Virus record (IMG/VR): IMGVR_UViG_3300028588_000019
Coordinates: 1 to 64,000 of that record
Strand: one strand, 5' to 3'
DNA from: a virus
Lineage: Duplodnaviria; Caudoviricetes
Length of the DNA: 64,000 bases
In this document: positions 11,353 through 52,111 of the stretch, one piece after another
Position numbering within the stretch: the stretch's first letter is position 1
How the letters are laid out: the number at the start of each line of letters is the position of its first letter
Notes under the pieces: generated by a model
Database searches by the model: none
Seen by the model: only the letters and a program-made list of their open reading frames with translations
What the model was told of the DNA's origin: nothing
Program-made: the position numbers and the translations under genes

Positions 11353-11691
11353 TTAATCCTCGAAGATGTTACAACGAACAGCAGGGGAACCGTCCTTGCC
11401 GGAACGGAACTGGAAGAACTTCAAACCCATTGCGGCAACATGGGTGCGGCAGACGCCGACCAGCGCAGCATCCGCGGCCTGCGTTTGGACGTGGTCAGTG
11501 GCTTTATGCCAGGTGTTTGGAATACCGATGCAGCGTGCGATCAGTTCCAGCGCCAGGCGGGTAGTAGTACCGACACCGCGCGTATCGCTGCACATCGGGT
11601 AGAGACGATTCTTGCGTTGCTTGTCTTTGGGCTTGTCGGCAGCGCGATCGAACGGCTGGCTCCAGTGGGTAAGCTTTTTGTGGTCGGTCAT
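11353..11691 (-). CDS. Hypothetical protein
   Basis: Starts MTDHKK with an ATGA overlap. Confidence 0.55.
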   Translation of the reverse strand: MTDHKKLTHWSQPFDRAADKPKDKQRKNRLYPMCSDTRGVGTTTRLALELIARCIGIPNTWHKATDHVQTQAADAALVGVCRTHVAAMGLKFFQFRSGKDGSPAVRCNIFED

Positions 11692-12086
11692 AATTTCACC
11701 AGATACTCGAAGGTCCATTCGGACGGGTTACCGAGCAAACCAGCCCGGCTTGGATGTGGGTCGAACACGATTTCGCCGTCTTTGCCGACAACGGAGTGGA
11801 ACAAACCTGCACCGCGAGGCGACGGGCCACCGATCAGATGGTAGCCTTCCATGTCGACCGCATAGGTTGGATCGTGACCGTCGGTGCGGAAGATCATACC
11901 AAGGCTGCGTGCGTCCAGGAAATTGAACACAGCATCCCAAAACTCTTCATTCTTGGTGTCCAGCTTTGCAAGGAAGTGCGGCACGTCCGCAATCGGCAGG
12001 TCCAGAACCGAAGCGATGGTTGCACGCATGCAGTCACCGTTTTGCACGCCCGGGATGTTGACGAACTCTTGGTCTTGGGGTGTCAT
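11688..12086 (-). CDS. Conserved phage protein, possible papain/C39-like Cys hydrolase
   Basis: GDCMRATIAS...HSVV...FDPHP gives candidate Cys/His/Asp residues. Confidence 0.5.
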   Translation of the reverse strand: MTPQDQEFVNIPGVQNGDCMRATIASVLDLPIADVPHFLAKLDTKNEEFWDAVFNFLDARSLGMIFRTDGHDPTYAVDMEGYHLIGGPSPRGAGLFHSVVGKDGEIVFDPHPSRAGLLGNPSEWTFEYLVKL

Positions 12087-12295: not shown

Positions 12296-12610
12296 TTATT
12301 CCGTGTACAGGTTGAAGCGGAGCCAGAGGTTACCAGCAGCTTCTTGACCACACTCAAAGAACTGCATCTCGGTCTGCGCGATGATCTGCATGATGCGGTC
12401 GCGGAGCATGCGGTTCACGATTGGTGCTTTACCGACACCTTCCATCGTCGCATGGTCGATGATCATCAGCTTCTTGTTGGGTTGCTGCATTGCTTTAGCG
12501 ATCATCATAAACGCTTGGGCTTGCGTCTTGCCGGTGAGGCGGTCGCTCGCAACGTTGCGCATGTCGTAGTTCGCGCCGAGCAGTTGGAACAGTTGGTTCT
12601 GTTTGGTCAT
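12296..12610 (-). CDS. Hypothetical protein (first gene of the leftward arm)
   Basis: Starts MTKQNQ; DRLTGKT resembles a degenerate P-loop, as does the protein at 11353. Confidence 0.55.
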   Translation of the reverse strand: MTKQNQLFQLLGANYDMRNVASDRLTGKTQAQAFMMIAKAMQQPNKKLMIIDHATMEGVGKAPIVNRMLRDRIMQIIAQTEMQFFECGQEAAGNLWLRFNLYTE

Positions 12611-13330
12611 GGGATCATGTATCCAGAGGGTTAAGGGGTGCAACAGGGACAACTGTACAGGGGAAATGCGGTTATGCAAAGGAATATTTTACGGGGTGGA
12701 ATTTGGACTGATCGTGGTGTAACTATCGGGTCCGAGATACGGAATTTTCGGTGGGGTATTTTTTCCGCAAATGGGTAATGTTGAGGTGAAAAAGGGAAGG
12801 GGGTGGGTCTAGTGGAACAGATAGAGGATGGGATTGGAGGGCAGTGATGGTTCTAGATAGGGAACTTTGGATTTTTTACCTAAAATATCACCCCATAGCC
12901 TAATATATAGGCATCCGCCCCGATTTACTTACGGCCACTATGTTCCACGCGTTCCACGCACCCTACAGCGCACGCGCGCACAGCACCCTCCTGCCCCACG
13001 CGCAAATTGTTCCACGCGCGCCTACCCCTGTTCCACGCGGTTTAAACCGCATACCTGCTGCCAGGGTGCGCCAGGGTGCACCAGGCACCCCAGCCGCAGC
13101 CCCATAGGTTTTAGCTATGTGTTCCAGTTTGCCCGATAGTTATATACAATCTGCCAAGGTGCACAACCGTGTATAGTTACACCTATGCGCTGCACACAAC
13201 GCTGCACGCAGTACCCCGCAAGGGGTGCGCTGTACCCTTGCTTTTTAACAACATAGCAGCTTACTACTAAGCAACATTACTATATAGCAATAATGCTGTA
13301 TAGCAACATACTTTACTATAGGTAAACATT
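12611..13330. other. Divergent non-coding control region; candidate origin or genome terminus
   Basis: No convincing ORF; plus strand is G-rich to about 12870, then C-rich; iteron-like repeats and a palindrome. Confidence 0.6.
12941..13050 (+). repeat. TGTTCCACGCG direct repeats and 14-bp palindrome
   Basis: Copies at 12941, 13008 and 13029, a partial copy at 12951; GCGGTTTAAACCGC at 13037-13050. Confidence 0.8.
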
Positions 13331-13900
13331 ATGCAAAACGCTAAATTCGGTAATACCAAAAACGCAATCGCACGTATGCAAGCACGCATTGCAGCTGTAC
13401 AAGCACTGCGCAGCAGCAAGCACGCTGCTCGGGTTGCAGCACGCAACCAACAAGCGTTTACCCTGCAAATGCAGCAGCTAGCAGCACAGTACAACGTTGC
13501 ACCCGAGCAGCTTAAAGCAATGCTTGGTGCTACCGACCGTGCAGCACGCGCTAACAGTGCAACTGCTAACCCTAGCACCGAACTGGTAACGGTTAACGGT
13601 GTTAGTTACAAACCATGCGCAGCAGTGCACGCACTGTGCGATTGGTTGGTTAGCACCGAACCAAACGCAACCCGTAAGCAAATGTTGGAGTTGTGCAAGG
13701 ATAATGGCATTAACGCAAGTACTGCTGCAACGCAGGTCGGTTTGTACCGTGCACGCGCTAAAGCAGCAGCAGACGCAGCACAGTAATGCAGCAGCACCCC
13801 GAACAGGGGTGCGCTTGCTAGTGTACCTTGGCAACAGGGTGCACCACCAAGCAACAACGTAGCAGATACAAGGTACGCAAGGCGCCCTACCCCTCGCTGG
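13151..13900. other. GA/TC-depleted island
   Basis: No GA or TC dinucleotide from 13151 to 13347; about 12 in the 456-bp ORF that follows (manual count). Confidence 0.9.
13331..13786 (+). CDS. Ala/Gln-rich protein with C-terminal wHTH-like domain (paralog family member 1)
   Basis: C-terminal AVHALCD...RKQMLELCKDNGINASTAATQ aligns with the proteins at 18422, 39782 and 40696. Confidence 0.7.
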   Translation: MQNAKFGNTKNAIARMQARIAAVQALRSSKHAARVAARNQQAFTLQMQQLAAQYNVAPEQLKAMLGATDRAARANSATANPSTELVTVNGVSYKPCAAVHALCDWLVSTEPNATRKQMLELCKDNGINASTAATQVGLYRARAKAAADAAQ

Positions 13901-14239
13901 GTAGCATCGCTGACCAGCACACCAATGGGTGTGAACAATTAGTAAGCTCTTTAACAATCTATAAGCTCTGCTCCCACGTTTACACCTTCACGAATAGGGT
14001 GTGGGATGACAGGCAACCCCCATGAGTAACCGCGTGCGTGTATGAGCCCGGGACCAAGGATTAAAAGCCGCATGGGGGAAAATATATTCAGTGGTCCGAC
14101 CTAACCTGAGTAACAGCTAGTACCTTATCACGAGAAGGTTAGTCAGCATGGTCGGGGTGTGCCCGCGTGACAGGCGGCATACTTATGTTCACTACCAAGT
14201 GCACATAAGTTGATAACCACACTAACAGGGGAATTAATC

Positions 14240-14479
14240 ATGGCATACAACGCTAATATCGAGCAACTTGCAGTCGACATCAAAAGCTTGACCGATACCG
14301 ACCTGCAATACCTCGTCAGCTTGCTCAGCAGCGACAGTGACATGGAGGACGACGTCCGCGAGTCAAGCTGCATGGGTGCAATGGCTTACGCATACCGTAC
14401 CAGCCGTGCAGTCATCGCTCAGCGCGACTTCAACCTGCGCGAGCAGGCAGCGATGGATGACGCGAACTACAAATGGTAG
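14240..14479 (+). CDS. Small early protein
   Basis: AGGGG RBS; starts MAYNANIEQL. Confidence 0.6.
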   Translation: MAYNANIEQLAVDIKSLTDTDLQYLVSLLSSDSDMEDDVRESSCMGAMAYAYRTSRAVIAQRDFNLREQAAMDDANYKW

Positions 14480-14527
14480 AGTAATTTACTAGCTTGCCGT
14501 GGCAGGCTAGTGAGTGCACTCTGCACT
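14480..14527 (+). repeat. Two-hairpin intergenic element, copy 1
   Basis: AGTAATTT + ACTAGCTTGC-CGTG-GCAGGCTAGT + G + AGTGC-ACTCT-GCACT. Confidence 0.85.
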
Positions 14528-18122: not shown

Positions 18123-18421
18123 GACGCAGAGTCGACGCCAAAATAAATTGTAACAGTTCCGTCCAATTGCGCGCAAACAAGCCCACAGCACCGAAAATCG
18201 GTTAAACTGGGCGTGTTGGTGCAGTAATTAGCGGGGTTTTGGGGGGTTTTTGGGTGCGGGTGCGCCCTACCCCCTAACCTAGTGCGCAAAACAGCGCCTA
18301 GGGTGCTTGCCGTGCGCGGCAGCTACCTTGCGGGTTACATGGTAAGTCCCCACGTTGCAGCTGCAAGGGGGTTTACCGGGTAATCTTGCCCAAGTTCTTT
18401 CACAATCTAAGGAGAAACACC

Positions 18422-19198
18422 ATGGCACAAGCTCAAACCTCCGCAGCTCCTGGCAAAACCAAAGCTGCGCCACGCGCATCCCGCGCAAAGAAACCGCAAG
18501 CTGAGCAAGTCGTGCAGACGACTGGCAATGCAACGGGCCCTGGCGGCAAGAACATGCCAGAAGTCACCGCGCAGAACCAGAACCCGCCTGAAATCACGCA
18601 AGAGCAGCGTCAAGGTGAACGTCGTCAGCAACAGCAGAGCGCAATCGCGCGCTTTGCCAACCAGTCGATGGACACCCCGGCAGCTCACAACGTGCCTGAA
18701 GTCACGGACGAACAGCGTAAGCTGATCGCCTTCCAGGAGCAGATGCGCATCACCGCTGAGCAGTTCGGTGTGCAGCTTCCGCCAAACCTCGAAGACGTGC
18801 TCAACGGCAAGGTTGAACAGCCGCAAGCTCAAGGCGCGCAGGGTGCACAACGTGCTCCGCGCAACGCTGACAGCCAGAACGGTGTCACGCGCCCTGCCAA
18901 GGGTACGAAGACCGGTCAGGTGTGGGACGCAGCCGACGCAATCTCGACCAGCAAGAACGGCCAACCGGCCACGATTGCTGAAGTCAAAGAGAAGTTGGCT
19001 GGTAGCGTCAACGACGCCACGACCCGCACGCAGTATTCGCGGTGGCGTAACTACCACGGCATCAAAGGCCGGCTCGATGCTCAACCTCAGCAGCAACAAG
19101 CTGCCAGTCCTGAAGGACGTGACGAGGGTATCGAGAAAGCCTTCGGTCGTCGCAAGGACGATGTCGACCGTCGCCAAGCTGAACCAGCTGCACAGTAA
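18422..19198 (+). CDS. Gln/Ala-rich protein with C-terminal wHTH-like domain (paralog family member 2)
   Basis: AAGGAG RBS; NGVTRPAKGTKTGQVWDAAD...VNDATTRTQYSRWR. Confidence 0.8.
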   Translation: MAQAQTSAAPGKTKAAPRASRAKKPQAEQVVQTTGNATGPGGKNMPEVTAQNQNPPEITQEQRQGERRQQQQSAIARFANQSMDTPAAHNVPEVTDEQRKLIAFQEQMRITAEQFGVQLPPNLEDVLNGKVEQPQAQGAQGAQRAPRNADSQNGVTRPAKGTKTGQVWDAADAISTSKNGQPATIAEVKEKLAGSVNDATTRTQYSRWRNYHGIKGRLDAQPQQQQAASPEGRDEGIEKAFGRRKDDVDRRQAEPAAQ

Positions 19199-36044: not shown

Positions 36045-36950
36045 ATGACCGCTTTTAATTTTAACGCAAATTCCGTCGCACCTGACTCCGGACGTGTTGG
36101 CGCGCTGCCTGCCGGCTGGTATGCTTCGATGCTGACCAAGACCGAAATCAAGCCCACCAACGGTGGCGGCGGCGCATATATCGCCGTGCAGGGTCAGGTT
36201 TCGGAAGGTCCGCACAAGGGCGCCAGCTGGTTCACCAACTTCAACATCCAGAACGCCAACGAAAAGGCTGTCGAAATTGGCATGGCGCAACTGTCGTCGC
36301 TGTGCCACGCAACCGGCGTCATGCAGTTCAGCGATACCGACCAGCTGAAAAACAAACCGTTTTACGTCCGCCTCAAGCTGGTGCCTGCCGAACTGAACGA
36401 ACCGGGCAACCCGGCCTCCGGCGTGAAATACGAAGAAAAGAACGAAGTGATGGCTTACCGCGCGATCACCGACCAGGCCGCAATGGAAGCAGCGAAGAAC
36501 CAAGCTGTCGCCAAGACGCCAGCCGGCGCGCAGGTTCCGCCGCAACAACCGCCGGCATTCGTTCCGCCGCAACAGCAGATGCAGCAGCAAGCGGCACCCG
36601 TCCAGCAACAGCAGCAGTGGAACCAACAGCCGCAACAACAGCAGGCACCACAGCAACAGCAATGGAGCCAGCAACCACAGCCGCAAGCCCCGCAACAGCA
36701 AGCTCCGCAACAGCAGCCGCCAGCATCGTGGCAGGGTCAGCAACAGCAGCAACAGCAGCAACAGGCGCCAGTTCAACAACAGCAAGCTCCTGCCGCTGAA
36801 GCACAACCAGCCTGGGCACAAGCTGGCGCCGCTCAACCGTGGGCACAGCAGCAAGCCCCGCAACAGCAGCAACAGCAGCAAGCTCCAGCCGGCCCGGCGG
36901 TAGATCCCGCAATGCCGGCCTGGATGCAGGGTCAGCCGCAACCACAGTAA
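36045..36950 (+). CDS. DUF669-type ssDNA-binding protein with long Q/P-rich tail
   Basis: LPAGWY..N-terminal OB-like domain, KNEV, then about 130 aa of Q/P/A; lies between Sak4 and the exonuclease. Confidence 0.8.
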   Translation: MTAFNFNANSVAPDSGRVGALPAGWYASMLTKTEIKPTNGGGGAYIAVQGQVSEGPHKGASWFTNFNIQNANEKAVEIGMAQLSSLCHATGVMQFSDTDQLKNKPFYVRLKLVPAELNEPGNPASGVKYEEKNEVMAYRAITDQAAMEAAKNQAVAKTPAGAQVPPQQPPAFVPPQQQMQQQAAPVQQQQQWNQQPQQQQAPQQQQWSQQPQPQAPQQQAPQQQPPASWQGQQQQQQQQQAPVQQQQAPAAEAQPAWAQAGAAQPWAQQQAPQQQQQQQAPAGPAVDPAMPAWMQGQPQPQ

Positions 36951-37957: not shown

Positions 37958-39702
37958 TGTCTGTTCGCCTCATACCCCGCGACTATCAGCTGGAAACAGT
38001 TAATAGCATCTTTCGTTACTTTCAGGCAAACCGCACTGGCAATCCGGTTGCGGGGTTGCCCACGGGTACGGGCAAGGCTTTCTGCATTGCCTACTTCCTG
38101 TTCAAAGCTCTGGAGATGTATTCCAAGCAAAAGATTCTCGTTGCGACACACGTTAAAGAGCTTGTTGACCAGAACTATAAAGAGTTCATTGAAATCTGGC
38201 CGCAAGCTCCGGCAGGTGTCTACAGTGCCGGTTTGAAGCGCAAAGATACGCATCAGTCTGTTATCTTCTGCGGTATTGCGTCGATTGCTAAGAATATCGA
38301 AGCTTTCGGTCGGGTGGACTTAGTGATTGTGGACGAGTGCCACCTCATCAGCCTCAAAGAAGACTCGATGTACCGTGCGGTATTTGACGCGCTCAAGGTT
38401 ATTAATCCGAACCTTCGCATCATTGGTTTCACCGCCACCCCATGGCGCGCTGGTCAAGGTCGTCTTACCGAAGGCGATGGTATCTTTACCGATATGTGTA
38501 TCGACCTTACCGACATGGCGTCCTTTAACCGCTTTGTGCGGGAGGGGTACTTAGTCCCACTGGTGTCCAAGCCTACAAAGCTCTTGCTTGACGTTACAGG
38601 GGTTAAAATCACAGCAGGTGAGTATAACGAGAAATCGCTGGACTTGGCTGTAAATAAAGACCATATCACTTTTGCTGCACTTCAGGAGGCGCAGCAGTAT
38701 GCGTACGAAACAGGGCGCCGTAGTTGGATCATTTTTGCAACAAGCCTAGCGCATGCCGACAAGATTAAAGAAATGCTGGAATATCTCGGTGTGACTTGTC
38801 GTGTCGTGCACAGTAAAATGTCTTCGACCGAGCGTGACAACAACGTTGCTGACTGGAAAGCAATGAAGTTTACCGCCATCATTAACATGGGCGTCCTAAC
38901 AACTGGTGTGAACCATCCTGCGCTAGACTTAATTGTCATGCTGCGTCCAACAATGTCGTCTGTCCTTTGGGTACAGATGCTCGGTCGCGGGACTCGTCCG
39001 TTATTTGTTCGTGAAGGTTACGACTTAACAACCATCCAAGGGCGACTCGATTCTATTGCTGCTAGTGCAAAACAGTATTGTCTAGTAATGGACTTTGCGG
39101 GTAACATCAAGCGCTTGGGACCCGTCAACGACCCGGTCATCCCCCGCAAGAAGGGTGCATCAAAAGGCGAAGTCCCGATTAAAGAATGCGACGCTTGCGG
39201 GATGTATAACCACATCAGTGCGAAGTGGTGCGGTGGCACCCCATTCAAAACGAATGAAGGTTGCGGCGCGGAGTTTGTATTCCGTGTACAGCTGAAGCAG
39301 GAAGCAAGCACCGAGGCTGTCGTTCGTGAGGACGACTTACCTGTTATTGAAACCTTCCCTGTGATGCAAACGACCGCCTCAGTGCATCGAAAAGAGGGTA
39401 AGCCTGACAGCTTGAAGGTGACGTACTATTGCTTCACCAAAAAGTTCACAAAGTACATTCTAATTGAGCATCCCGGATTTGGCCGTCGCAAAGCTGAAAT
39501 GTGGTGGAGTGAGCGAACGAACTTGACTTTACCCATCACAACGGCTGAGGCAATGGAAATATTCACGGAGCTTAGCGTACCGACTCACATCCAAGTGTGG
39601 ACAAACGCTCCGTATCCTGAAATTATGAAGGAGTGCTTCATGGGCGAATTTGCAAATAGCGTCCCCGGTAACGAACTTGCAAAGAATGATATTCCGTTCT
39701 AA
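37957..39702 (+). CDS. SF2 helicase (RadD/YejH-like) with Zn finger
   Basis: PTGTGKA, DECH, TATP, LTTG, QMLGRG.R, KECDAC. Confidence 0.92.
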   Translation: MSVRLIPRDYQLETVNSIFRYFQANRTGNPVAGLPTGTGKAFCIAYFLFKALEMYSKQKILVATHVKELVDQNYKEFIEIWPQAPAGVYSAGLKRKDTHQSVIFCGIASIAKNIEAFGRVDLVIVDECHLISLKEDSMYRAVFDALKVINPNLRIIGFTATPWRAGQGRLTEGDGIFTDMCIDLTDMASFNRFVREGYLVPLVSKPTKLLLDVTGVKITAGEYNEKSLDLAVNKDHITFAALQEAQQYAYETGRRSWIIFATSLAHADKIKEMLEYLGVTCRVVHSKMSSTERDNNVADWKAMKFTAIINMGVLTTGVNHPALDLIVMLRPTMSSVLWVQMLGRGTRPLFVREGYDLTTIQGRLDSIAASAKQYCLVMDFAGNIKRLGPVNDPVIPRKKGASKGEVPIKECDACGMYNHISAKWCGGTPFKTNEGCGAEFVFRVQLKQEASTEAVVREDDLPVIETFPVMQTTASVHRKEGKPDSLKVTYYCFTKKFTKYILIEHPGFGRRKAEMWWSERTNLTLPITTAEAMEIFTELSVPTHIQVWTNAPYPEIMKECFMGEFANSVPGNELAKNDIPF

Positions 39703-39781
39703 AAATAAATGTGTTTGCGCTGCCGCATGTGCTGTACAATGTGTGCTTGTGGTAGCGCAAACCTTAAAGGAGATGTGACTT

Positions 39782-40534
39782 ATGTATGTTGTCATAGACC
39801 GCGAATACTTGTGTGTCAAGTACAAGCACCCAAACCAATCCGCCATTAACAATCTGGCGTGCATTGAAATCCCGTACCAGCCAATCGTCGTTGTTAGCGC
39901 GACTGATAAAGATAGCTTCGAGTCTTTTACGGACTACGAACTGAAGGTTATGTACGAAAACCTGTGCGGACTGCTGTACTCGGGCTTTCGTCGTCCGGAC
40001 CTCGTCACAAGCGTAATCCGTTTGATTGGTATGTTGTCTGAAACCGACTTGGTCCCTCGTGAAGTTGACCAACAACTGGACACCATCAAGGACCCGGACG
40101 ATGGCCCGTTCCAATACGTGCGCGGTTCAGCTGTACCGAAAAAGCAGAACGAGCTCTGGCTACCACCTACGATGGTCACTCGCGACGGCGTCATCCCAAA
40201 CGGAAAAAAGTACCATGTACCAGACCCCGTTAAACGCGTGCAACCTCTGTACAGCCCCGTATATACCAACCCCGCACTGTTTGCAGCGCCTAGCACCCCT
40301 GCCGCGCGTGCAAACAGCACCGGGGAACCCAGCGCACCAGCGGCACCGCCCAAAGCGGGTAGCACAACAGGTCGGGTATGGGCAATTGCGGACGACTGCT
40401 ACCAGAAGCACTCGGTTCTCGACAAGACCCTGCGCAAGATGGTTGCTGACGAATGCGAAGCGCAGGGTATCAATTCCTCCACCATGAGCGTGCAGTTCAG
40501 CAAATGGAAGGGACACAAATTGGCACAGTCCTAA
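39782..40534 (+). CDS. Protein with C-terminal wHTH-like domain (paralog family member 3)
   Basis: PKAGSTTGRVWAIAD...ECEAQGINSSTMSVQFSKWK. Confidence 0.75.
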   Translation: MYVVIDREYLCVKYKHPNQSAINNLACIEIPYQPIVVVSATDKDSFESFTDYELKVMYENLCGLLYSGFRRPDLVTSVIRLIGMLSETDLVPREVDQQLDTIKDPDDGPFQYVRGSAVPKKQNELWLPPTMVTRDGVIPNGKKYHVPDPVKRVQPLYSPVYTNPALFAAPSTPAARANSTGEPSAPAAPPKAGSTTGRVWAIADDCYQKHSVLDKTLRKMVADECEAQGINSSTMSVQFSKWKGHKLAQS

Positions 40535-40695: not shown

Positions 40696-41292
40696 ATGTC
40701 CGAGCAAAAATCCCAAGAGCAAATCGCAGCAGAAGCTGCTGAAACCAAAGCCAAAGCCGACGCCGCCAAAGCGGAAGCGAAAGCTGCCAAAGACAAGGCC
40801 GCCGCTGAAGCCAAGGAAAAGAAACAAGCCGCCGCTGCCGAAGCCAAGCGCCTGAAGGACGAAGCCAAGGCCGCCGAGAAAGCCGAAAAAGAAGCCAAAG
40901 CTGCCGCTGCTGCCAAAGAAAAAGCCGACAAAGCCGCTGCCGCTGCTGCCGAAAAAGCCGCTACTGCCGCTGCCAAGGTCAAGGTCGTCATGCCATCGCA
41001 AAACGGTATCACCCGTCCGAAGACCGGCACCAAGACCGGCGACGTCTGGGCCCTGGCCGACAAGCTGTCCACCGAAAAGAATGCGCCGATCGCTATCGCT
41101 GAACTGCTGCCAGCCGGCGCCGCCGCAGGCCTGAACGACGCGACCATCCGCACGCAATACGCACGCTGGAAAACCTTCAACGGCATCTTCGGTTCGGTCA
41201 AAGCTGCACCGAAAGCCCCTGAAACCCCGGCACCGACCGCGCAGACCGAACAGACCGCCGGCGCCGAAGCAACCGAACCGGCCGCCGCCTAA
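40696..41292 (+). CDS. Histone H1-like (Ala/Lys/Glu) protein with wHTH-like domain (paralog family member 4)
   Basis: About 95 aa of AKE repeats, then NGITRPKTGTKTGDVWALAD...LNDATIRTQYARWK. Confidence 0.85.
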   Translation: MSEQKSQEQIAAEAAETKAKADAAKAEAKAAKDKAAAEAKEKKQAAAAEAKRLKDEAKAAEKAEKEAKAAAAAKEKADKAAAAAAEKAATAAAKVKVVMPSQNGITRPKTGTKTGDVWALADKLSTEKNAPIAIAELLPAGAAAGLNDATIRTQYARWKTFNGIFGSVKAAPKAPETPAPTAQTEQTAGAEATEPAAA

Positions 41293-41584: not shown

Positions 41585-42313
41585 TTGCAAGTCATCCCAA
41601 TCAATAAGCAACCGATCGAAAAGCGCAACAACGAGGCGCGTTCGCTCGAAGTCCATTCCATTTTCCTCACCATTCAAGGTGAGGGTCCATTCACCGGATA
41701 CCCAGCAGTATTCATCCGCCTCGCGGGCTGCAACCTGCAATGCCCTTCGTGCGACACCGACTACACCAACGGTCGCAAGGGTATGTCCGTCGAAGCAATT
41801 GTGTCGGAAGTGAAAAGCGTGCACTCGGAATGCAATGCGCGGCCCATTGTGGTCATCACCGGTGGCGAACCCTTCCGTCAAAACATCGAACAACTGGTTG
41901 AACTGCTGTTGCGCCAGGACTTTACCGTCCAGGTCGAGACCAACGGTACGCTTGCACCACTCAACGTCCAAGCACCAGTGTGGTTCAATCGCAAGTTTCA
42001 CATCGTATGCAGCCCGAAGGCTGGCAAGGTACACAACTGGATTGCCAATCGCGCCGACTGCTTCAAGTACGTCCTGAGCGCCGACAGTGTCGACCCGGAA
42101 GACGGCCTGCCAATCCTTGCGCTTAACCACACTGCCTCGCCGCGCGTTGCTCGTCCATTCTTCAGCACGAAGAACAAGCCCATCTATCTGCAACCGATGG
42201 ACGCGAAAGACCAAGCTAAGAACGATGCTAACGTCTGCGCAGTCCTGCAAAGCTGCATCAAACACGGCTATATCTTCCAACTGCAAACGCACAAATACAT
42301 CGGGGTCGAATGA
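41585..42313 (+). CDS. queE: 7-carboxy-7-deazaguanine synthase (radical SAM)
   Basis: IFLTIQGEG, FIRLAGCNLQCPSCDT, VITGGEP, VETNG, CSPK, LQTHK. Confidence 0.95.
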   Translation: MQVIPINKQPIEKRNNEARSLEVHSIFLTIQGEGPFTGYPAVFIRLAGCNLQCPSCDTDYTNGRKGMSVEAIVSEVKSVHSECNARPIVVITGGEPFRQNIEQLVELLLRQDFTVQVETNGTLAPLNVQAPVWFNRKFHIVCSPKAGKVHNWIANRADCFKYVLSADSVDPEDGLPILALNHTASPRVARPFFSTKNKPIYLQPMDAKDQAKNDANVCAVLQSCIKHGYIFQLQTHKYIGVE

Positions 42314-42513: not shown

Positions 42514-42797
42514 GGCTCGAAGACTGGAGTGTGGTCGCTTCACCATTGTCAGGTTACCGTGACCCGGAGCAATGGTCCCCTAAGCTGTACGGCACGGTGT
42601 ACGGTAATCCAAAGTTCGCGGACGGTTCGCTTATTTTTACGAGCCGCATTGTTACGGTGGACAAAAAGGCTGGCACTGCAACCACCAAGTCCGGCAGCGT
42701 CTATGTGCTGGGTGAAGTGTCCGCAGAATACGAAAACATTCATCCAAACGCGCGTGAGCGCTTCTTCAATCAAGGGGTTAGCAATGTTCAAAATTAA
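42510..42797 (+). CDS. Conserved small phage protein in que cluster
   Basis: LEDWSVV...LYG.VYG.PKF.DG..I.TS.IV...T.SGS.Y.LG. Confidence 0.7.
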   Translation: MRLEDWSVVASPLSGYRDPEQWSPKLYGTVYGNPKFADGSLIFTSRIVTVDKKAGTATTKSGSVYVLGEVSAEYENIHPNARERFFNQGVSNVQN

Positions 42798-43581
42798 AGC
42801 ACTGGTCGTCCTGTCCGGCGGCCAAGATTCGACCACCTGCGCATTCTGGGCCAAGCAGCAGGGTTACGAGATCCACGCGGTGACTTTCGATTACGGTCAG
42901 AAGCACGTCATCGAAATCGAAGCGGCCAAGAAGATCGCGGAACTCGTCGGCGCCGTGTCGCACGAGATCATCAAGCTGGGCGACGGCGTCCTGGCCGGTA
43001 CGTCCCCGCTCACCAACAAAGCGGAAGTCCTGGAACAATACGCCGACCACCAATCGCTGCCAGGCGGTCTGGAAAAGACCTTCGTACCGCTGCGCAATCA
43101 GCTGTTCTTGACCGTTGCTGCGAACCGCGCCTACGTCATGGGCTGTACCGTGCTGGTCACCGGCGTCTGTCAAGAAGACAGCGGAGGCTATCCGGACTGC
43201 CGCGCCACCTTCATCAGCGCCGTACAGGACGCAACCAACTATGGTACGTTTACCGGCGAACCCGGTACGCTGCCACCCCTGCGCATCCTGACCCCGCTGA
43301 TGTACCTGACCAAGGCCGACAGCGTGCGCCTGGCGCGTGCCATCCCGGGCTGCTACGATGCGCTGGCGTATTCCCACACCAGCTACGACGGCGCTTACCC
43401 GCCCGTAGGTAAAGACCATGCAACCCTCCTGCGCGCAAAAGGCTTCGAAGAAGCAGGCTTGCCTGACCCGCTGGTCGTGCGTGCATGGAAAGAGGGTCTG
43501 ATGGACCTTCCAGATACGAAGGTTTACAACGACTTCGAAGACCAAATGGACGCTGCTCGCGAAGCTGCTGAGGGCGACTAA
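42784..43581 (+). CDS. queC: 7-cyano-7-deazaguanine (preQ0) synthase
   Basis: VLSGGQDSTT, FDYGQ.H..E, TFVPLRN, GYPDCR, TPLMYLTKA. Confidence 0.95.
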   Translation: MFKIKALVVLSGGQDSTTCAFWAKQQGYEIHAVTFDYGQKHVIEIEAAKKIAELVGAVSHEIIKLGDGVLAGTSPLTNKAEVLEQYADHQSLPGGLEKTFVPLRNQLFLTVAANRAYVMGCTVLVTGVCQEDSGGYPDCRATFISAVQDATNYGTFTGEPGTLPPLRILTPLMYLTKADSVRLARAIPGCYDALAYSHTSYDGAYPPVGKDHATLLRAKGFEEAGLPDPLVVRAWKEGLMDLPDTKVYNDFEDQMDAAREAAEGD

Positions 43582-43582
43582 C

Positions 43583-43777
43583 ATGGCAATCGGCGGCGGT
43601 ATTCGTAAAGGCAATGGCTGCGTTACCGCCGCCAAGCCCGAGTCCATTTACGAGGCGCATCGTAAGCTCGAGAAGAAGTACACTGAAAAGTGCCAGCAAC
43701 TTGAGCGTGCAGAGAAGAAAATCTTAATTCTGAACGAGCGCATTAAAAAACTTTCTGCAAAGAAGAATCCAAAATGA
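43583..43777 (+). CDS. Small coiled-coil protein
   Basis: 64 aa filling the gap between queC and queD. Confidence 0.55.
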   Translation: MAIGGGIRKGNGCVTAAKPESIYEAHRKLEKKYTEKCQQLERAEKKILILNERIKKLSAKKNPK

Positions 43778-44298
43778 GCAAATATCGCAGTACCAAGACC
43801 TACGGTCACGAGCTCGGACTGTCGGCGTGCTTCCGCCAGCATCGTGCAACGCATTCGCACTGCTCGATGCTGCACGGTTACGCGCTCGCGTTCACTTTCA
43901 CGTTCGAAGCAGACACGCTGGACGACCGCAATTGGGTCCAGGACTTCGGAGGCCTGAAAGAACTGAAGCAAAAGCTTCAACGGACGTTCGACCACAAGCT
44001 GGTCGTCGCGGAAGACGATCCGAAGGTGCACGAGATTTGCCGTTTGGACGGCTACGTCGCGGACGTACTTGTGCTGCCTGCGGTCGGCTGCGAAGCGTTC
44101 GCGAAACAGGCTTACGACATGGCCTGTGAAGTTATTCGTGACGCAAACAAGGCTGAGGTTGCTCGTCTCCAGTCTGAGCACAAGCCTGGCACCCAATGGC
44201 CAACCGCTGGTCGTCAGCGCGTCCGCGTCGTGTCGGTCGAGTGCCGCGAGCACGGCGCCAACAGCGCAATTTACATCGGTGGCGAGGATGAAGCATAA
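43774..44298 (+). CDS. queD: 6-carboxytetrahydropterin synthase
   Basis: HCSMLHGY, WVQDFG.LK, FDHK, ECREHGANSA. Confidence 0.93.
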   Translation: MSKYRSTKTYGHELGLSACFRQHRATHSHCSMLHGYALAFTFTFEADTLDDRNWVQDFGGLKELKQKLQRTFDHKLVVAEDDPKVHEICRLDGYVADVLVLPAVGCEAFAKQAYDMACEVIRDANKAEVARLQSEHKPGTQWPTAGRQRVRVVSVECREHGANSAIYIGGEDEA

Positions 44299-44527
44299 AC
44301 TCATCTATGACAGGCGAGCAGGCGGTTACTCAGCAATCTGTTCGCTTTATAACCAACTCGGGGTGGCGGAATTCGTCATCACTATGGACCATAACGAAGG
44401 ATTTACGCATAGCGTGCTTCGTGTTCCAGACGAGAAGGTTATTGTCACCTGGCGCAAACTTGGCAAGGACATGCACAACTGTCCTGTCGAACCTAATAAA
44501 TTTATTGTTACGAAATCACTAGCATGA
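44288..44527 (+). CDS. Small hypothetical protein
   Basis: GAGG RBS; starts MKHKLIY; overlaps both neighbours. Confidence 0.55.
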   Translation: MKHKLIYDRRAGGYSAICSLYNQLGVAEFVITMDHNEGFTHSVLRVPDEKVIVTWRKLGKDMHNCPVEPNKFIVTKSLA

Positions 44528-45147
44528 ACATTAAAGAAAACGAGCAAGGTCAAAAGCACTACATCCGCGTGAAAGCTGTCGAACAACTGCTACGCACGAT
44601 CCCGGGCACACTAGCACCTGCACCAGCAGAATTCGGACAGCTGACCGGCGCACTGCGCGAAGGCGTCCAGGACACGCCGAATCGCGTTGCCAAGGCTTGG
44701 GCGGAATGGACCAGCGGTTATAGCATTGACATCGCAGAACTGCTGAAGGTGTTCGAAGACGGCGCCGAGGGCTACGATGAGATGGTTGTGGTCAAAGACA
44801 TCCCCATCTACAGCAAGTGCGAGCATCACCTCGCAGACATCTTCGGCACGGCAACCATCGCGTATATCCCGGACGGCAAGGTTGTCGGCCTGTCCAAGCT
44901 GTCCCGCCTGGCAGATGCGTTCGCAAAGCGTCTGCAAGTGCAGGAGCGCCTGACGGTGCAGATCGCTGACGCGCTGATGGAACATCTGCAACCGAAAGGC
45001 TGTGGCGTTATCGTCCGTGCCAGACATATGTGCATGGAATCGCGGGGCATCTGCCAGCAAGGTCACCACACTGTGACTTCCGCATTGCGCGGTGTGTTCA
45101 AGGATCAACCTGAAACCCGCGCCGAATTCCTGGCGCACGGAAAATAA
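44524..45147 (+). CDS. folE: GTP cyclohydrolase I
   Basis: DTPNRVAKA, CEHHL, VVGLSKL.R, RLQVQERLT, HMCM..RG. Confidence 0.97.
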   Translation: MNIKENEQGQKHYIRVKAVEQLLRTIPGTLAPAPAEFGQLTGALREGVQDTPNRVAKAWAEWTSGYSIDIAELLKVFEDGAEGYDEMVVVKDIPIYSKCEHHLADIFGTATIAYIPDGKVVGLSKLSRLADAFAKRLQVQERLTVQIADALMEHLQPKGCGVIVRARHMCMESRGICQQGHHTVTSALRGVFKDQPETRAEFLAHGK

Positions 45148-46231: not shown

Positions 46232-46346
46232 AACGCGCTACAAGCGCGTGCAATCCGGGGGTGCAGTGTGCTATGCTGTACCCCTTTTTAACGCGCTGCG
46301 CACCCTTGCCGCAAGCGCAAACCGCATTCCAGGGCCAGTACAAGCT

Positions 46347-47273
46347 ATGAAACTTTTCCTCGCTGCTGTCTACACCAATCATTACATGGAGACGCAGAAC
46401 CGCTACGAGAAGCTGAACGAAGCTGAGCAGCACATTATGTCGGATGTCCCGAACATCCTTGAATCATATCACTACGTTAAGAACCAGTCCTTTGTAGATA
46501 CAATGAGGTCGCGCGGTGCAAAGGTCTTTCTTGACTCGGGCGCATTCTCCGCGCACTCGCTGAACGCCCATATTGATATCAACCAGTATTGCGACTACAT
46601 CATCCGCAACAGGGATATCCTGCGCGTCGAAGATGGCGCAGTAATGGCTTCGGTGCTTGACGGTATCGGTGACCCGCTCAAGACCTACCAGCACCAGCTT
46701 CACATGGAAAAGATGGGTGCAAAGCCTCTCCCCTGCTTCCACTACGGCGAAGACATCCGTTACCTCGAGTTCTACGTCAAGAACTATGACTACATTACGA
46801 TCGGTGGTCTGGTGCGGCGCACGTCCGAAGCACAGAAGGTGTGGTTAGACCGCATTTGGCCGTACATGCTGGACGGTAGCGGTCGTCCAAAGTTGAAAGT
46901 CCATGCCTTCGGTATGACGGCACCGTGGCTGATGGAACGATATCCATGGTACAGTGTCGACTCCTCGTCTTGGATTCAGGCAGCGGCGTTCGGTTCCATC
47001 TTTACCAGCGAGCACGGACCAATTGCAGTGTCCAGCACTTCGCCTTCCCGGCACGACTACGGCAGGCACATAACCACACTACCCGACGTCGAGCGTCAAT
47101 ACATGGAGCAAATGCTCGCTAAAAAAGGTTTTGAAACTGAGCGTCTAGGCACAGTTTACGAATCCCGGGCAGTGTATAATATGCTGGGGTACATGGAATT
47201 AAACGACCTGATCCTCGAGCGGATCAAAGGCAAGCAGACATTCGATTGCAGTAAAATTCAGGAGCTATTCTAA
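46347..47273 (+). CDS. dpdA: DNA guanine transglycosylase DpdA
   Basis: TGT-barrel motifs FLDSGAFS, LD.IGD, FHYGE, VHAFG, YSVDSSSW; adjacent to que genes. Confidence 0.88.
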   Translation: MKLFLAAVYTNHYMETQNRYEKLNEAEQHIMSDVPNILESYHYVKNQSFVDTMRSRGAKVFLDSGAFSAHSLNAHIDINQYCDYIIRNRDILRVEDGAVMASVLDGIGDPLKTYQHQLHMEKMGAKPLPCFHYGEDIRYLEFYVKNYDYITIGGLVRRTSEAQKVWLDRIWPYMLDGSGRPKLKVHAFGMTAPWLMERYPWYSVDSSSWIQAAAFGSIFTSEHGPIAVSSTSPSRHDYGRHITTLPDVERQYMEQMLAKKGFETERLGTVYESRAVYNMLGYMELNDLILERIKGKQTFDCSKIQELF

Positions 47274-47692
47274 TGTGTGTAATTGACAGCTTTAACGGGG
47301 AGTTCCGCTTCCTGTCCAACTTTGCTTATTCTGAATTCACTTTGTACGGTACGCGCTACCCGACCGTTGAGCACGCCTACCAAGCATTGAAGTGTGTCAG
47401 CCAGCGCGACCACGACGGGATTGCGACTGCGCGAACTCCAGGCGTTGCCAAGAAGCTCGGTCGTGTAGTTCAGCTGCGCGAAGATTGGGAACAGTCAAAA
47501 GATGCGGTTATGATAGCATGTGTGTACGCCAAGTTCAAACAGAACCCGCATCTAGCCGAGCAACTGCGCAACACTCGCGGATGCACGCTAATCGAAGGGA
47601 ATACGTGGGGTGACCATTATTGGGGCGTCTGTAAGGGGACCGGGCAGAACATGCTTGGACAAATTCTAATGCGAGTAAGGGACATGGTTTAA
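47273..47692 (+). CDS. NADAR (YbiA-like) ADP-ribose hydrolase
   Basis: FLSNF, YPTVEHAYQA.K, AKKLG, LREDWE, KFKQN..L..L, EGNTWGD.YWG, GQNMLG.ILM..R. Confidence 0.93.
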   Translation: MCVIDSFNGEFRFLSNFAYSEFTLYGTRYPTVEHAYQALKCVSQRDHDGIATARTPGVAKKLGRVVQLREDWEQSKDAVMIACVYAKFKQNPHLAEQLRNTRGCTLIEGNTWGDHYWGVCKGTGQNMLGQILMRVRDMV

Positions 47693-49450: not shown

Positions 49451-51517
49451 ATGCGGGCAGATAGCGTAGGATTATTCTGGGAGGACGTTGCTAAAGTCAA
49501 GCCTCCCAAGAAAGAAAAAGTAAAGCGCACTCCACCCGAGAAGTTTTGGACGGTGGAAGGTTACATTCCGCCTGGTGCACTGGAGGAAGCGCAGTCGTAC
49601 GAGTACAAGTTCTTCAACGATATGGAACTGTACCAGGCAATGTTGCGCGGTGAACGCTTGGTGTATGACTTGGAGGTCTACCCGAATTATTTCCTAGCAG
49701 GCTTTAAAGGCATTGATAGCGGAAAGTATGTGTTCCTCGAAGAGATTCACCACGATCTTGGCGACCTCCCTGAACGCACTTACAACCGCGAAAAGCTCAA
49801 GTGGATCCTTGAAAAGTTTACGCTGATTAGCTTCAACGGCAAGAAGTACGACGATATCATTTCTGCGCTTGCAGTGCACCCGCAATTCGGCTGCATTGAC
49901 TTCTGGAACGCAACCTGCATGCTGATCCAGGAGGGTTTGCGCGACCGTGATATTTATTCGCACTACTCTGTCAAGAAACTTGAAATTGACAGTATCGACA
50001 TTAAAGAGCTTACAGCGCAAGGGCCTAGTTTGAAGAAATGCGCAGCACGCTTGCATGCCCCACGATTGCAAGACCTGCCGTTCATCCCCGGTACATACCT
50101 CACGGACAGGCAAATTGTTGTGTTGCGCCGATACAACATCAACGACTTGGACAACACGCAGATTGTTTACGAGTCCAAGCTCGACATTATTGCGATTCGT
50201 GAGCAGAAGGGTAAAGAATACGGCGTAGACCTGCGGTCTAGTTCCGATGCGCAAATGGCTGAAGCGATTGTTGGCGCTGAGATTCGGCGTATGACCGGAC
50301 GCAAGTATATCCAGCGCACCAAGATTGACCCCGGTACAGCTTACAAATACCGCGCGCCAACGTGGGTGAACTTTAAGACTCCGATGATGCAAGACTTCTT
50401 GCGTCGATTGCAGAAGCTGGACTTTGTGGTCAACCATTGGGACGGCGGTTTGCTCATGCCGCCTGAGCTCGATAAGTACACTATTAAGATTGCAGAGGGT
50501 AGCTATGCTGTCGGTATCGGTGGGCTGCACAGCCAGGAGAAGTCGGTTGCATGGTACGCAGACGACGAATACGAACTGGTTGACACCGACGCGACGTCCT
50601 ACTATCCCACACTGATCCTTAACGCGGGTCTGAAACCGCAATCGCTCGGTGACGCGTTCATTCAGATTTATCGTCGCATCGTTCAAGAGCGTGTTGCAGC
50701 AAAGCACGCAGGCGACGACATCACCGCGCAGTGCTTGAAGATTGTCATTAACGGCACGTTCGGTAAACTTGGCAATATGTACTCAATCATGTACGCGCCC
50801 CACCTCATGTTGCAGGTTACGATTACGGGTCAGCTGTCGCTGCTGATGCTCATTGAGCGCTTTGAGCTTGCAGGTATTCGCGTCATTAATGCTAACACCG
50901 ACGGTGTGGTTGCTCGTCCGCACAAGTCCCAGCGCGAAACCTTTAACGCTATCGTCAAGCAGTGGGAACGCGAAACGGGCTTCGGTACGGAAGAAACGCT
51001 CTACAAAGCGTACATGGCTAAAGACGTGAATAACTACCTTGCACAGTACGTTAAGCCTGAAAAGGGTCAGCACTTTAAGACAAAGGGTCTGTACGCTAAA
51101 ACCTCGTCGGCGAAGAATGCCGTCAATGAGGTCTGTATCCTTGCGCTGAAGGAATATCTCATCAACAAGACCTCCGTCGAAGAAACAATTCGCAACTGCA
51201 CAAAGCCATCCATGTTTACCACAATGCGCGAGACGCACATGGGCGGTGGAGCGGTCAAAGGGGACCAGTACCTCGGCAAAGTGGTTCGTTGGTATTACGC
51301 GAAAGGTGAGACCGGAGAGATTCAGGTCGTTAAGACGGGTAACAAGGTTGCACGCTCGGACGGTGCAATTCCACTGATGGATTTACCAGACGAGCTACCG
51401 GAGGATTTAGACTACGACTGGTACATCGCTGAGGCGAATAAGATCCTTGGTAAGATCGGTACAGTGGCGGAAGAGGGGGAGTCTGACGAAGAAGACGAAG
51501 AAACTGAAACCGCTTAA
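49451..51517 (+). CDS. Family B DNA polymerase
   Basis: Exo DLE and FNG..YD; motif A DATSYYP, motif B KIVINGTFGK, motif C NTDG. Confidence 0.9.
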   Translation: MRADSVGLFWEDVAKVKPPKKEKVKRTPPEKFWTVEGYIPPGALEEAQSYEYKFFNDMELYQAMLRGERLVYDLEVYPNYFLAGFKGIDSGKYVFLEEIHHDLGDLPERTYNREKLKWILEKFTLISFNGKKYDDIISALAVHPQFGCIDFWNATCMLIQEGLRDRDIYSHYSVKKLEIDSIDIKELTAQGPSLKKCAARLHAPRLQDLPFIPGTYLTDRQIVVLRRYNINDLDNTQIVYESKLDIIAIREQKGKEYGVDLRSSSDAQMAEAIVGAEIRRMTGRKYIQRTKIDPGTAYKYRAPTWVNFKTPMMQDFLRRLQKLDFVVNHWDGGLLMPPELDKYTIKIAEGSYAVGIGGLHSQEKSVAWYADDEYELVDTDATSYYPTLILNAGLKPQSLGDAFIQIYRRIVQERVAAKHAGDDITAQCLKIVINGTFGKLGNMYSIMYAPHLMLQVTITGQLSLLMLIERFELAGIRVINANTDGVVARPHKSQRETFNAIVKQWERETGFGTEETLYKAYMAKDVNNYLAQYVKPEKGQHFKTKGLYAKTSSAKNAVNEVCILALKEYLINKTSVEETIRNCTKPSMFTTMRETHMGGGAVKGDQYLGKVVRWYYAKGETGEIQVVKTGNKVARSDGAIPLMDLPDELPEDLDYDWYIAEANKILGKIGTVAEEGESDEEDEETETA

Positions 51518-51598
51518 AACGCGTTTGCCGCGTTTTGTTTGCGCGGTAGGGGGTAAGTGTAGGGGGTACGGGCTTTGCAGCGTGTACCCCCTTTGCCG

Positions 51599-52111
51599 TT
51601 ACTGCGCTGGTGCGTTGCAGGTGTCCCGCGCAGCGTTGTACAGGTCGATCAGGAGGTTGCGTTCTCGCACAAGTCTTGCACTGTCTGCTGCGGCGCGGAG
51701 AACGTCTTCAGAAGCTTCTGGCACCAGATCGGTTCCTCCTTCTTCGACACCGAATCCGGCAGTGGTGGGATTTGAGGGCGCTTGGTTTCCAGGAGCCGGA
51801 CTTGCGGGGCAGCGCAACCCGCTAGTGCCAGCACGAGCCCGAGCAATAGCTTTTTCAATTGCATCTTCATGTTTAGCTTTCAGGATGGATTCGTTGGTGG
51901 TGAGGGTTTGGACTTGAGCTTTCAACGCTGCTTCGCGCTGTTCGGCAAGCTTGTTCAGTTTGACTTGAGCGTCTTTCGCGATCTTGTCGTCGGATGCAAT
52001 TTGAGCAAGCAATTCTTGCGCACCGTCGTGACGCCCGTACTGGAATAGACCATAACCCAGCAGCGCAGCAAGCAGAAGGCCCACGAACCAGTCCAACAGG
52101 TCGGACTTCAT
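51599..52111 (-). CDS. Rz: Inner-membrane spanin (Rz-like)
   Basis: N-terminal TM and coiled coil, directly after the endolysin. Confidence 0.85.
   Translation of the reverse strand: MKSDLLDWFVGLLLAALLGYGLFQYGRHDGAQELLAQIASDDKIAKDAQVKLNKLAEQREAALKAQVQTLTTNESILKAKHEDAIEKAIARARAGTSGLRCPASPAPGNQAPSNPTTAGFGVEEGGTDLVPEASEDVLRAAADSARLVRERNLLIDLYNAARDTCNAPAQ
51649..51870 (-). CDS. Rz1: Outer-membrane lipoprotein spanin (Rz1-like), embedded in Rz
   Basis: Lipobox LALAGC and Pro-rich mature part, in an alternate frame within Rz. Confidence 0.8.
   Translation of the reverse strand: MKMQLKKLLLGLVLALAGCAAPQVRLLETKRPQIPPLPDSVSKKEEPIWCQKLLKTFSAPQQTVQDLCENATS

Follow-up and report, generated by a model that had tools for sequence, protein, structure and literature searches.

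A kilobase nearly free of GA and GGC at the first early gene of an uncultured phage that encodes a DNA guanine transglycosylase

Introduction

Why should a phage that encodes the machinery to modify guanines in its DNA keep about 1 kb of that DNA almost free of the words at which a related enzyme acts? The question is posed by one locus in the window, by which we mean the whole 64,000-nucleotide stretch analyzed here, bases 1–64,000 of the 72,474-bp IMG/VR virus record IMGVR_UViG_3300028588_000019 (Duplodnaviria; Caudoviricetes), for which a second assembly of 72,488 bp exists. At a divergent junction in this genome, GA/TC and GGC/GCC are depleted on both strands across an island that takes in the gene with which the rightward early/replication arm begins, an open reading frame (ORF) that we call ORF151. 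The phage is uncultured, and its sequence is present in public leaf-litter and soil metagenome runs. We refer to it as G000; other G and L numbers denote the genomes and loci of its relatives.

Results

A single extreme excursion in word content

Across the island (Table 1), we counted 28 GA plus TC where 122 were expected from genome frequency. In 500-nt sliding windows the count falls to 7–8, compared with a genome mean of 57.8 (standard deviation 8.9), giving z scores of −5.5 to −5.7, and no other strand-symmetric dinucleotide lies below z −4 anywhere in the 72-kb genome, making the island its sole extreme excursion. A sequence-only reading of this DNA had proposed such a sliding-window check and had stated that the words are used freely outside the island; the genome-wide counts agree, and they show the depleted zone to be wider than was then noted, at about 12890–13945. 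The same reading had placed a stretch of about 196 nt without GA or TC at the start of this region, which we measured at 197 nt, the longest such run of the genome.

GGC and GCC are scarce as well. Between 13100 and 13800 they occur 3 times, compared with 26.3 ± 4.9 in first-order Markov (Markov-1) simulations built from the island's own dinucleotides, indicating that this depletion is independent of base and dinucleotide content. Pooled over three independent islands, GA/TC stands at 0.25 of expectation and GGC/GCC, at 0.35 of expectation, is the most depleted trinucleotide that does not contain GA or TC; GGT and GGG are freely used. The depletion is neither chance nor a low-complexity artefact. 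GA and TC are depleted together on one strand, which places the constraint on duplex DNA and not on RNA; for this reason, and since CC shows no depletion, Rho, RNases, and other RNA-level causes were rejected. The motifs of Dnd phosphorothioation (GAAC/GTTC, GGCC) were also considered and rejected: all GA contexts are avoided, yet GTTC is present in the repeats of the island.

Elsewhere in the window, two more GA/TC-free runs are statistically unusual, at 18198–18347 (149 nt) and 51506–51624 (118 nt). Both are G-rich intergenic DNA with GGGTGCG-type motifs; the former precedes a winged helix-turn-helix (HTH) paralogue at 18422–19198, and the latter follows the DNA polymerase gene. The relative G008 has five GA/TC-free runs of 128–156 nt. 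The notion that every intergenic region is GA/TC-free was rejected, as pooled early spacers carry 8.4 GA plus TC per 100 nt compared with about 12 in genes; the spacer effect is modest, the two significant runs excepted.

Codon choice in ORF151

The depletion extends through the coding sequence of ORF151. The sequence-only reading had given about 12 GA plus TC in this 456-bp gene against about 57 at uniform frequency, most of them forced by Asp and Glu codons, and a single GGC/GCC. All of this held on recounting: the gene has 8 GA and 4 TC, every GA is position 1 of an Asp or Glu codon, and the lone trinucleotide is a GGC at 13706, with GCC absent. When synonymous codons were resampled with the phage's own codon usage and the protein held fixed, 35.5 GA plus TC were expected instead of 12 (z −5.9) and 19.4 GGC plus GCC instead of 1 (z −5.5). 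At 2.6 GA plus TC per 100 nt, ORF151 compares with 7.3–17.2 for the 62 other genes tested. Serine is encoded by 0 TCN and 7 AGY codons, alanine without GCC, and glycine by GGT, and the stop codon is TAA. The product is basic, Asp and Glu make up 5.3% of it, and its amino acid composition has thus also yielded to the word ban. The avoidance is visible at synonymous sites, across the junctions between codons, and in the choice of amino acids.

An AlphaFold model of the protein (predicted local distance difference test [pLDDT] score 83.5) has a 50-residue N-terminal helix, a β-hairpin, and a three-helix, HTH-like C-terminal domain, with residues 86–150 (hairpin plus three helices) modeled at a pLDDT of about 90. 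Foldseek against PDB gave no match below E 1; the best weak ones were FapR, the AraR DNA-binding domain, and homeodomains, and the weak matches (E > 1) are mostly to HTH, winged-helix, and homeodomain folds. ORF151 belongs to no Pfam or PHROG family, with no Pfam match below E 0.1. We regard it as a putative dimeric HTH protein.

The C-terminal domain recurs in three paralogues in the window (18422–19198, 39782–40534, and 40696–41292). Its signature, QNG..P..G.VW..AD...GIN..T..TQ, defines a multi-copy family in dpdA-positive phages (W06, W10, W02, and W01/W12), and genes encoding it often sit immediately upstream of queE, with 4 copies in RHEph06 (W06), 3 in Vibrio phage 1.207.B (W10), and 2 in vB_VhaS-tm. 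Across dpdA-positive phages the domain often lies beside the genes for 7-cyano-7-deazaguanine (preQ0) synthesis, and it could serve as a DNA-binding module linked to modification.

The island in diverged relatives

Twelve ORF151 homologues came from the protein database and others from IMG/VR, and the family comprises 14 or more; the IMG/VR members were found with an alignment, single-sequence patterns having found none. Each homologue opens the rightward gene series at this same junction. G001 and G002 are complete and dpdA-positive, with a DpdA 75–78% identical and an ORF151 homologue 48–59% identical to those of G000. Nucleotide alignment to the window reaches 65–78% in conserved genes, whereas the island does not align. 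Their islands are nevertheless stronger: the count drops to 3 GA plus TC per 500 nt, GA/TC-free stretches measure 362 and 395 nt, and GGC/GCC are depleted. The sequence-only reading had proposed comparing dpdA-positive with dpdA-less relatives for the same islands, and in these dpdA-positive ones the island is kept; since the DNA of G001 and G002 is unalignable there, yet more depleted, the island is under selection and not inherited by descent.

Observed GGC/GCC counts against Markov-1 expectation are 3 versus 26 in G000, 7 versus 52 in G001, 13 versus 34 in G002, and 5 versus 45 in G010. The extreme case among the dpdA-positive relatives is G010, with 1205 nt without GA/TC or GGC/GCC that span two ORFs devoid of Asp and Glu. 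These adjacent ORFs (L048:2926-3318 and L048:3420-3686) encode 130 and 88 residues and also lack TCN serine codons; for the second, no relative was recognized in this analysis. Strong islands are also present in G007, G024 (locus L079), L034, L035, L036, and L037. Seven homologues with islands retain 29 GA between them, 27 of which are in Asp or Glu codons, and their serine is almost only AGY, and the pattern holds across homologues of 41–69% protein identity as well as in the second, unrelated ORF of G010. Half-strength islands occur in G008, G022, and G023 (all dpdA-positive), G009, and L031. Avoidance of a narrower sub-word in the partial islands of G008, G022, G023, L031, and L042 was rejected, all NGA and GAN contexts being about half depleted.

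Searches of 50,697 phage records with the region (blastn) and with ORF151 (tblastn) gave no match. Relatives of the neighboring gene at 11688–12086 (31–60% identical) have no island, but they belong to different phages.

DpdA specificity and the avoided words

The modification would presumably be written by a DNA guanine transglycosylase of the DpdA type, which the window encodes together with FolE, QueD, QueE, and QueC (Table 1); a NADAR-domain gene (47273–47692) directly follows dpdA. DpdA is closer to the enzyme of phage CAjan (64.7% identity) than to that of the Iggy lineage (56.8%), and it has no match to Pfam TGT. The modified base, 7-cyano-7-deazaguanine in DNA (dPreQ0), was mapped by nanopore sequencing to GA and GGC in CAjan (PMC7544227), in agreement with the sequence-only reading, and to GA only in Iggy, where 97% of sites are modified (PMC10484667). 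From these maps and the island's word set, we infer that the DNA of G000 is modified, at GA and GGC.

All complete or near-complete genomes carrying the ORF151 family are dpdA-positive (G000, G001, G002, G008, and G022), as is G023 (57% completeness), and no dpdA-less member was identified among the family loci examined. In seven complete dpdA-less relatives identified by TerL, no window falls below 0.52 of the genome's own mean; the ORF151 family is also missing there.

The cultured phage Iggy offers an independent comparison. Its genome-wide GA/TC minimum, at 59901–60575, has 9 GA plus TC per 500 nt and 14 in total compared with 65.4 expected, and it lies in a non-coding junction of about 1 kb where the early arm starts, the same divergent junction as in G000. 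GGC plus GCC are undepleted in this island (46 versus 45.8 expected under Markov-1), and the Iggy relative HTN2 has the same GA/TC-only island. The islands of two lineages thus match the published or inferred specificities of their own DpdA enzymes. Of all the evidence, this match speaks most strongly for the avoided words being DpdA targets, a link that we regard as rather probable. ORFs are annotated inside the Iggy-lineage island (HTN2 59888–60196, ABMZ61_92; Iggy 60220–60366, gp90), with products rich in W, C, R, G, and P. They are probably spurious, because neither strand of DNA that lacks GA and TC can contain a TGA or TCA stop.

Genome layout and other features of the locus

The island occupies the junction of two divergent arms. 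Leftward from about 12610 run small genes, VRR-NUC, TerS, TerL, and portal; rightward from 13331 lie numerous small early genes and those for a primase-helicase, a helicase, preQ0 synthesis, DpdA, and DNA polymerase. TerL is about 50% identical to that of Queuovirinae, whose bidirectional layout, described in the Iggy paper (PMC10484667), is the same. The 127-bp "terminal repeat" of the record has the length of a common assembler k-mer.

Table 1. Coordinates of the depleted island, its repeats and hairpins, and the preQ0 and DpdA genes in the window
Feature	Position	Strand	Remarks
GA/TC-depleted island	12890–13945	both	Right part of divergent intergenic region, first rightward gene, terminator region
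GTTCCAC(GCG) repeats	12941–13048	+	Four copies at 12942, 12951, 13009, and 13030, ending in palindrome GGTTTAAACC
Tandem copies of CAGGGTGC(G/A)CCA	13062–13083	+	Two copies; candidate operators
Longest GA/TC-free run of the genome	13150–13347		197 nt; promoter/leader region and ORF start
Left arm of 13-nt inverted repeat	13152–13164	+	TGCCAAGGTGCAC; 92% complementary; repeat brackets ORF151
Stretch without GGC or GCC	13154–13705		
Terminator-like hairpin, then T-run	13221–13249	+	Upstream of ORF151
ORF151	13331–13786	+	First gene of rightward early/replication arm
Second hairpin	13795–13815		Just past ORF151 stop; shares AGGGGTGCGCT with hairpin at 13221–13249
Right arm of 13-nt inverted repeat	13821–13833		
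QueE	41585–42313	+	Pfam Radical_SAM
QueC	42529–43581	+	Pfam QueC
QueD	43774–44298	+	Pfam PTPS
FolE	44524–45147	+	Pfam GTP_cyclohydroI
DpdA-type DNA guanine transglycosylase	46248–47273	+	Presumed modification writer; phrog_887, E 1.9e-79

The number and spacing of the GTTCCAC repeats are kept in G001, and the cluster is inverted in L037; this is a candidate protein-binding site, for a terminase, an origin, or a regulator. Beyond the tandem copies in Table 1, RGGTGCRC recurs at 13157, 13223, 13807, and 13837, so that 6 of the window's 24 copies fall within the kilobase of the island, all on the + strand; they too are candidate operators. A scan for sigma-70 promoters and terminators returned no more sites than in shuffled sequence.

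The surroundings of the island have features of their own. At 12682–12870 (+ strand), a purine-rich tract with many GA and G-runs, such as GGGAAGGGGGTGGG, abuts the island's left edge and contrasts sharply with it. Contigs of three metatranscriptome runs, which carry three study codes from one habitat and one year, cover only 13834–14156 out of 4 kb; this stretch lies in the spacer that separates ORF151 from the following gene, and it may be an abundant early RNA. The fold of 13960–14240 as RNA is not significant (z −1.6), and Rfam gave only a chance-level match on 12500–14500. Immediately upstream of the second early gene, at 14155–14235, lie a hairpin CCGCGTGACAGGCGG, a variable hairpin, TTGATAACCACAC, and a ribosome-binding site. 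This element is conserved in the clade (also in L018, L019, L028, L031, L033, and L034), including the island-less L033, and its sequence includes conserved GA.

Discussion

We propose that the island is probably a selected, modification-free entry cassette, and we infer its purpose as follows. The island would be a self-contained unit at the head of the early arm, made up of cis-repeats, promoter/leader, ORF151, and terminator, which selection would hold nearly free of GA and GGC on both strands, the words at which the DpdA of this lineage is expected to swap guanine for dPreQ0. The cassette would then stay unmodified in an otherwise modified genome, and it would be the first DNA used on entry, before any phage protein exists. 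The G001 and G008 contigs start beside the island, but those of G000, G002, and G022 assemble through it. Free of major-groove adducts, the cassette could be read by the host sigma-70 RNA polymerase and by sequence-specific binders, and ORF151 itself may act on the clustered RGGTGCRC sites. It would also offer no substrate to modification-dependent defenses such as 7-deazaguanine glycosylases and type IV enzymes. The glycosylases Dag1 and Dag2 cut 7-deazaguanine DNA, and phage mutants that escape them lose dpdA (bioRxiv 10.1101/2025.10.29.685425). The ban spans the whole transcription unit and is absolute in G010, which suggests that single modified sites are already costly in the cassette. 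If the avoided words are indeed DpdA targets, readability by DNA-binding proteins is a serious possibility for the purpose and evasion of defenses one that we hold more tentatively; some other purpose is unlikely, and a genome-end, packaging, or origin requirement is more doubtful still.

Several observations weigh against this proposal. CAjan, 9g, G012, and G021 lack an island in spite of being dpdA-positive, which shows that dpdA by itself does not require one, and the association with dpdA is phylogenetically confounded, resting on one clade plus Iggyvirus. Within the dpdA-positive clade, the islands of G008, G022, and G023 are only half depleted, and GGC/GCC are undepleted in G022 and G023 and depleted in one of two G008 segments (10 versus 28); islands of the L028 type, without GA/TC, retain a good part of their GGC/GCC. 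L033, whose ORF151 homologue is 62% identical, lacks the island; it is an 8.3-kb Logan contig that may or may not belong to a dpdA-positive genome, and a metagenome scan for an L033-like locus found none, returning short contigs only. The specificity of DpdA is extrapolated from an enzyme 65% identical to it, and for this uncultured phage the modification is a prediction. Finally, GA occurs at normal density in the rest of the early genes, which must be transcribed from parental DNA as well, and therefore modification cannot block transcription in general. The claim of the sequence-only reading, that the phage has removed DpdA target words, is supported in part, by dpdA, the preQ0 genes, the conserved islands, and the match in Iggy; host RNA polymerase, origin, and packaging proteins, which it named as the beneficiaries, are candidates.

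A host-side explanation would leave the phage's own enzyme out: a nuclease or defense system of the host might read GA and GGC sites in incoming DNA, modified or not, so that the leading DNA must lack them. The first-step-transfer region of T5 and gene 0.3 and the early region of T7 are precedents for selection on leading DNA only. We know of no restriction system that reads a bare dinucleotide plus one trinucleotide, and other palindromes (TGCA, GCGC, and AGCT) are abundant in the island. Strand-symmetric avoidance does point to a reader of double-stranded DNA, and the mapped termini of Iggy (1091-bp direct terminal repeats), whose record begins and ends in the junction region, together with two long linear clade contigs that start 0.5–0.9 kb upstream of the ORF151 homologue, fit a leading position; selection confined to the leading region is also documented for Murciavirus against Type I restriction-modification (PMC12455610). 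A host reader would have to share, by coincidence, a word set that equals the published DpdA motifs exactly and that, in lineages with different hosts, follows the specificity of the respective DpdA, which makes this explanation improbable.

The composition could instead reflect a cis-acting role of the junction or of a genome end located there (terminal repeat, packaging site, or origin), which would call for certain physical or binding properties of the DNA, with the gene merely lying inside it. The GTTCCAC repeats and GGTTTAAACC palindrome, whose number and spacing G000 and G001 share, and the six clustered RGGTGCRC sites would suit such a function, as would the island's length of about 1.05 kb, near the size of Iggy's 1091-bp terminal repeat, the essentially non-coding nature of the Iggy island, and the several contigs that break near the island. 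A two-word ban over 450–650 nt of coding sequence, down to synonymous codons, is left unexplained by it, however. In L034 the ORF alone is depleted and the upstream region is not, the GTTCCAC repeats themselves contain TC, and G022 (71 kb) and the circular assemblies of G000 and G002 run unbroken through the island. We consider this account quite improbable. Differences in depth were too weak to place physical termini, and tblastn with the small leftward genes found no match in G001, G008, or G002. A third possibility, that an Ala/Gln-rich low-complexity gene or a recent transfer produced the pattern as a by-product, with no selection on words, can point to the Ala/Gln-rich protein, to a 1.95-fold enrichment of GCA/TGC, and to a different low-complexity gene that is also GA-poor in several Queuovirinae (window 36401–36601, CAjan 38901–39101, and PaMx25 39501–39800). 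Holding the protein fixed still leaves 35.5 GA plus TC expected against 12, non-coding flanks are equally depleted, GGC/GCC fall short even of the island's own dinucleotide content, and the pattern persists in homologues of 41–69% identity and in the unrelated ORF of G010. The by-product account is largely refuted, and we give it very little credence. The GA/TC-poor segment at 36401–36601 is itself GGC/GCC-rich, belongs to a conserved gene between the AAA/Sak4-like and Cas4-like exonuclease genes, and is also present in HTN2 (42716), Vid5 (38751), and G018 (44301); it resembles an Ala-rich low-complexity linker more than a case of word avoidance.

The proposed entry cassette resembles known systems in some respects and departs from them in others. 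With the dPreQ0 systems of Queuovirinae such as CAjan and Iggy, G000 shares the set of DpdA, FolE, QueD, QueE, and QueC and the bidirectional layout, at about 50% identity in TerL and 57–65% in DpdA, and the words avoided in its island equal their published motifs. Unlike our analysis, the CAjan and Iggy papers (PMC7544227 and PMC10484667) map modification sites, not a zone free of target words, and mention no depleted regions. As in the leading regions of Murciavirus (PMC12455610), T5, and T7, selection on words is confined to a small region where the early genes begin, and elsewhere the words are used freely. In those phages, avoidance concerns a few copies of a 6–8-nt motif that a host enzyme recognizes, whereas G000 avoids a dinucleotide and a trinucleotide that match the motif of its own modification; about 100 expected occurrences have been removed, and a protein has been reshaped. 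Genome-wide restriction-site avoidance in phages likewise involves purifying selection on short oligonucleotides at synonymous sites; it is mostly palindromic, whereas the avoidance seen here is local (1 kb of 72 kb) and non-palindromic, with other palindromes plentiful. Our literature search found no published mention of motif-free zones in deazaguanine phages; in our reading, word avoidance under selection is here aimed at the phage's own modification motif.

DNA hypermodification is usually viewed as a genome-wide shield, and the island would be a conserved, strongly selected hole in it at the first gene. Guanine-hypermodifying phages might, we suggest tentatively, keep a "clean landing strip" that is readable by host machinery and invisible to modified-base defenses, its missing words tracking the specificity of DpdA. 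As Iggy is cultured, bears an island, and has nanopore modification maps, this idea is testable now. If it is true, modification would carry a cost for the phage itself, through unreadable control DNA or exposure to 7-deazaguanine glycosylases. The target motifs of DpdA would be predictable from sequence alone, the first-used DNA of uncultured phages would have a marker, and ORF151 and its relatives would provide a natural case of proteins evolving under a nucleotide-word ban.

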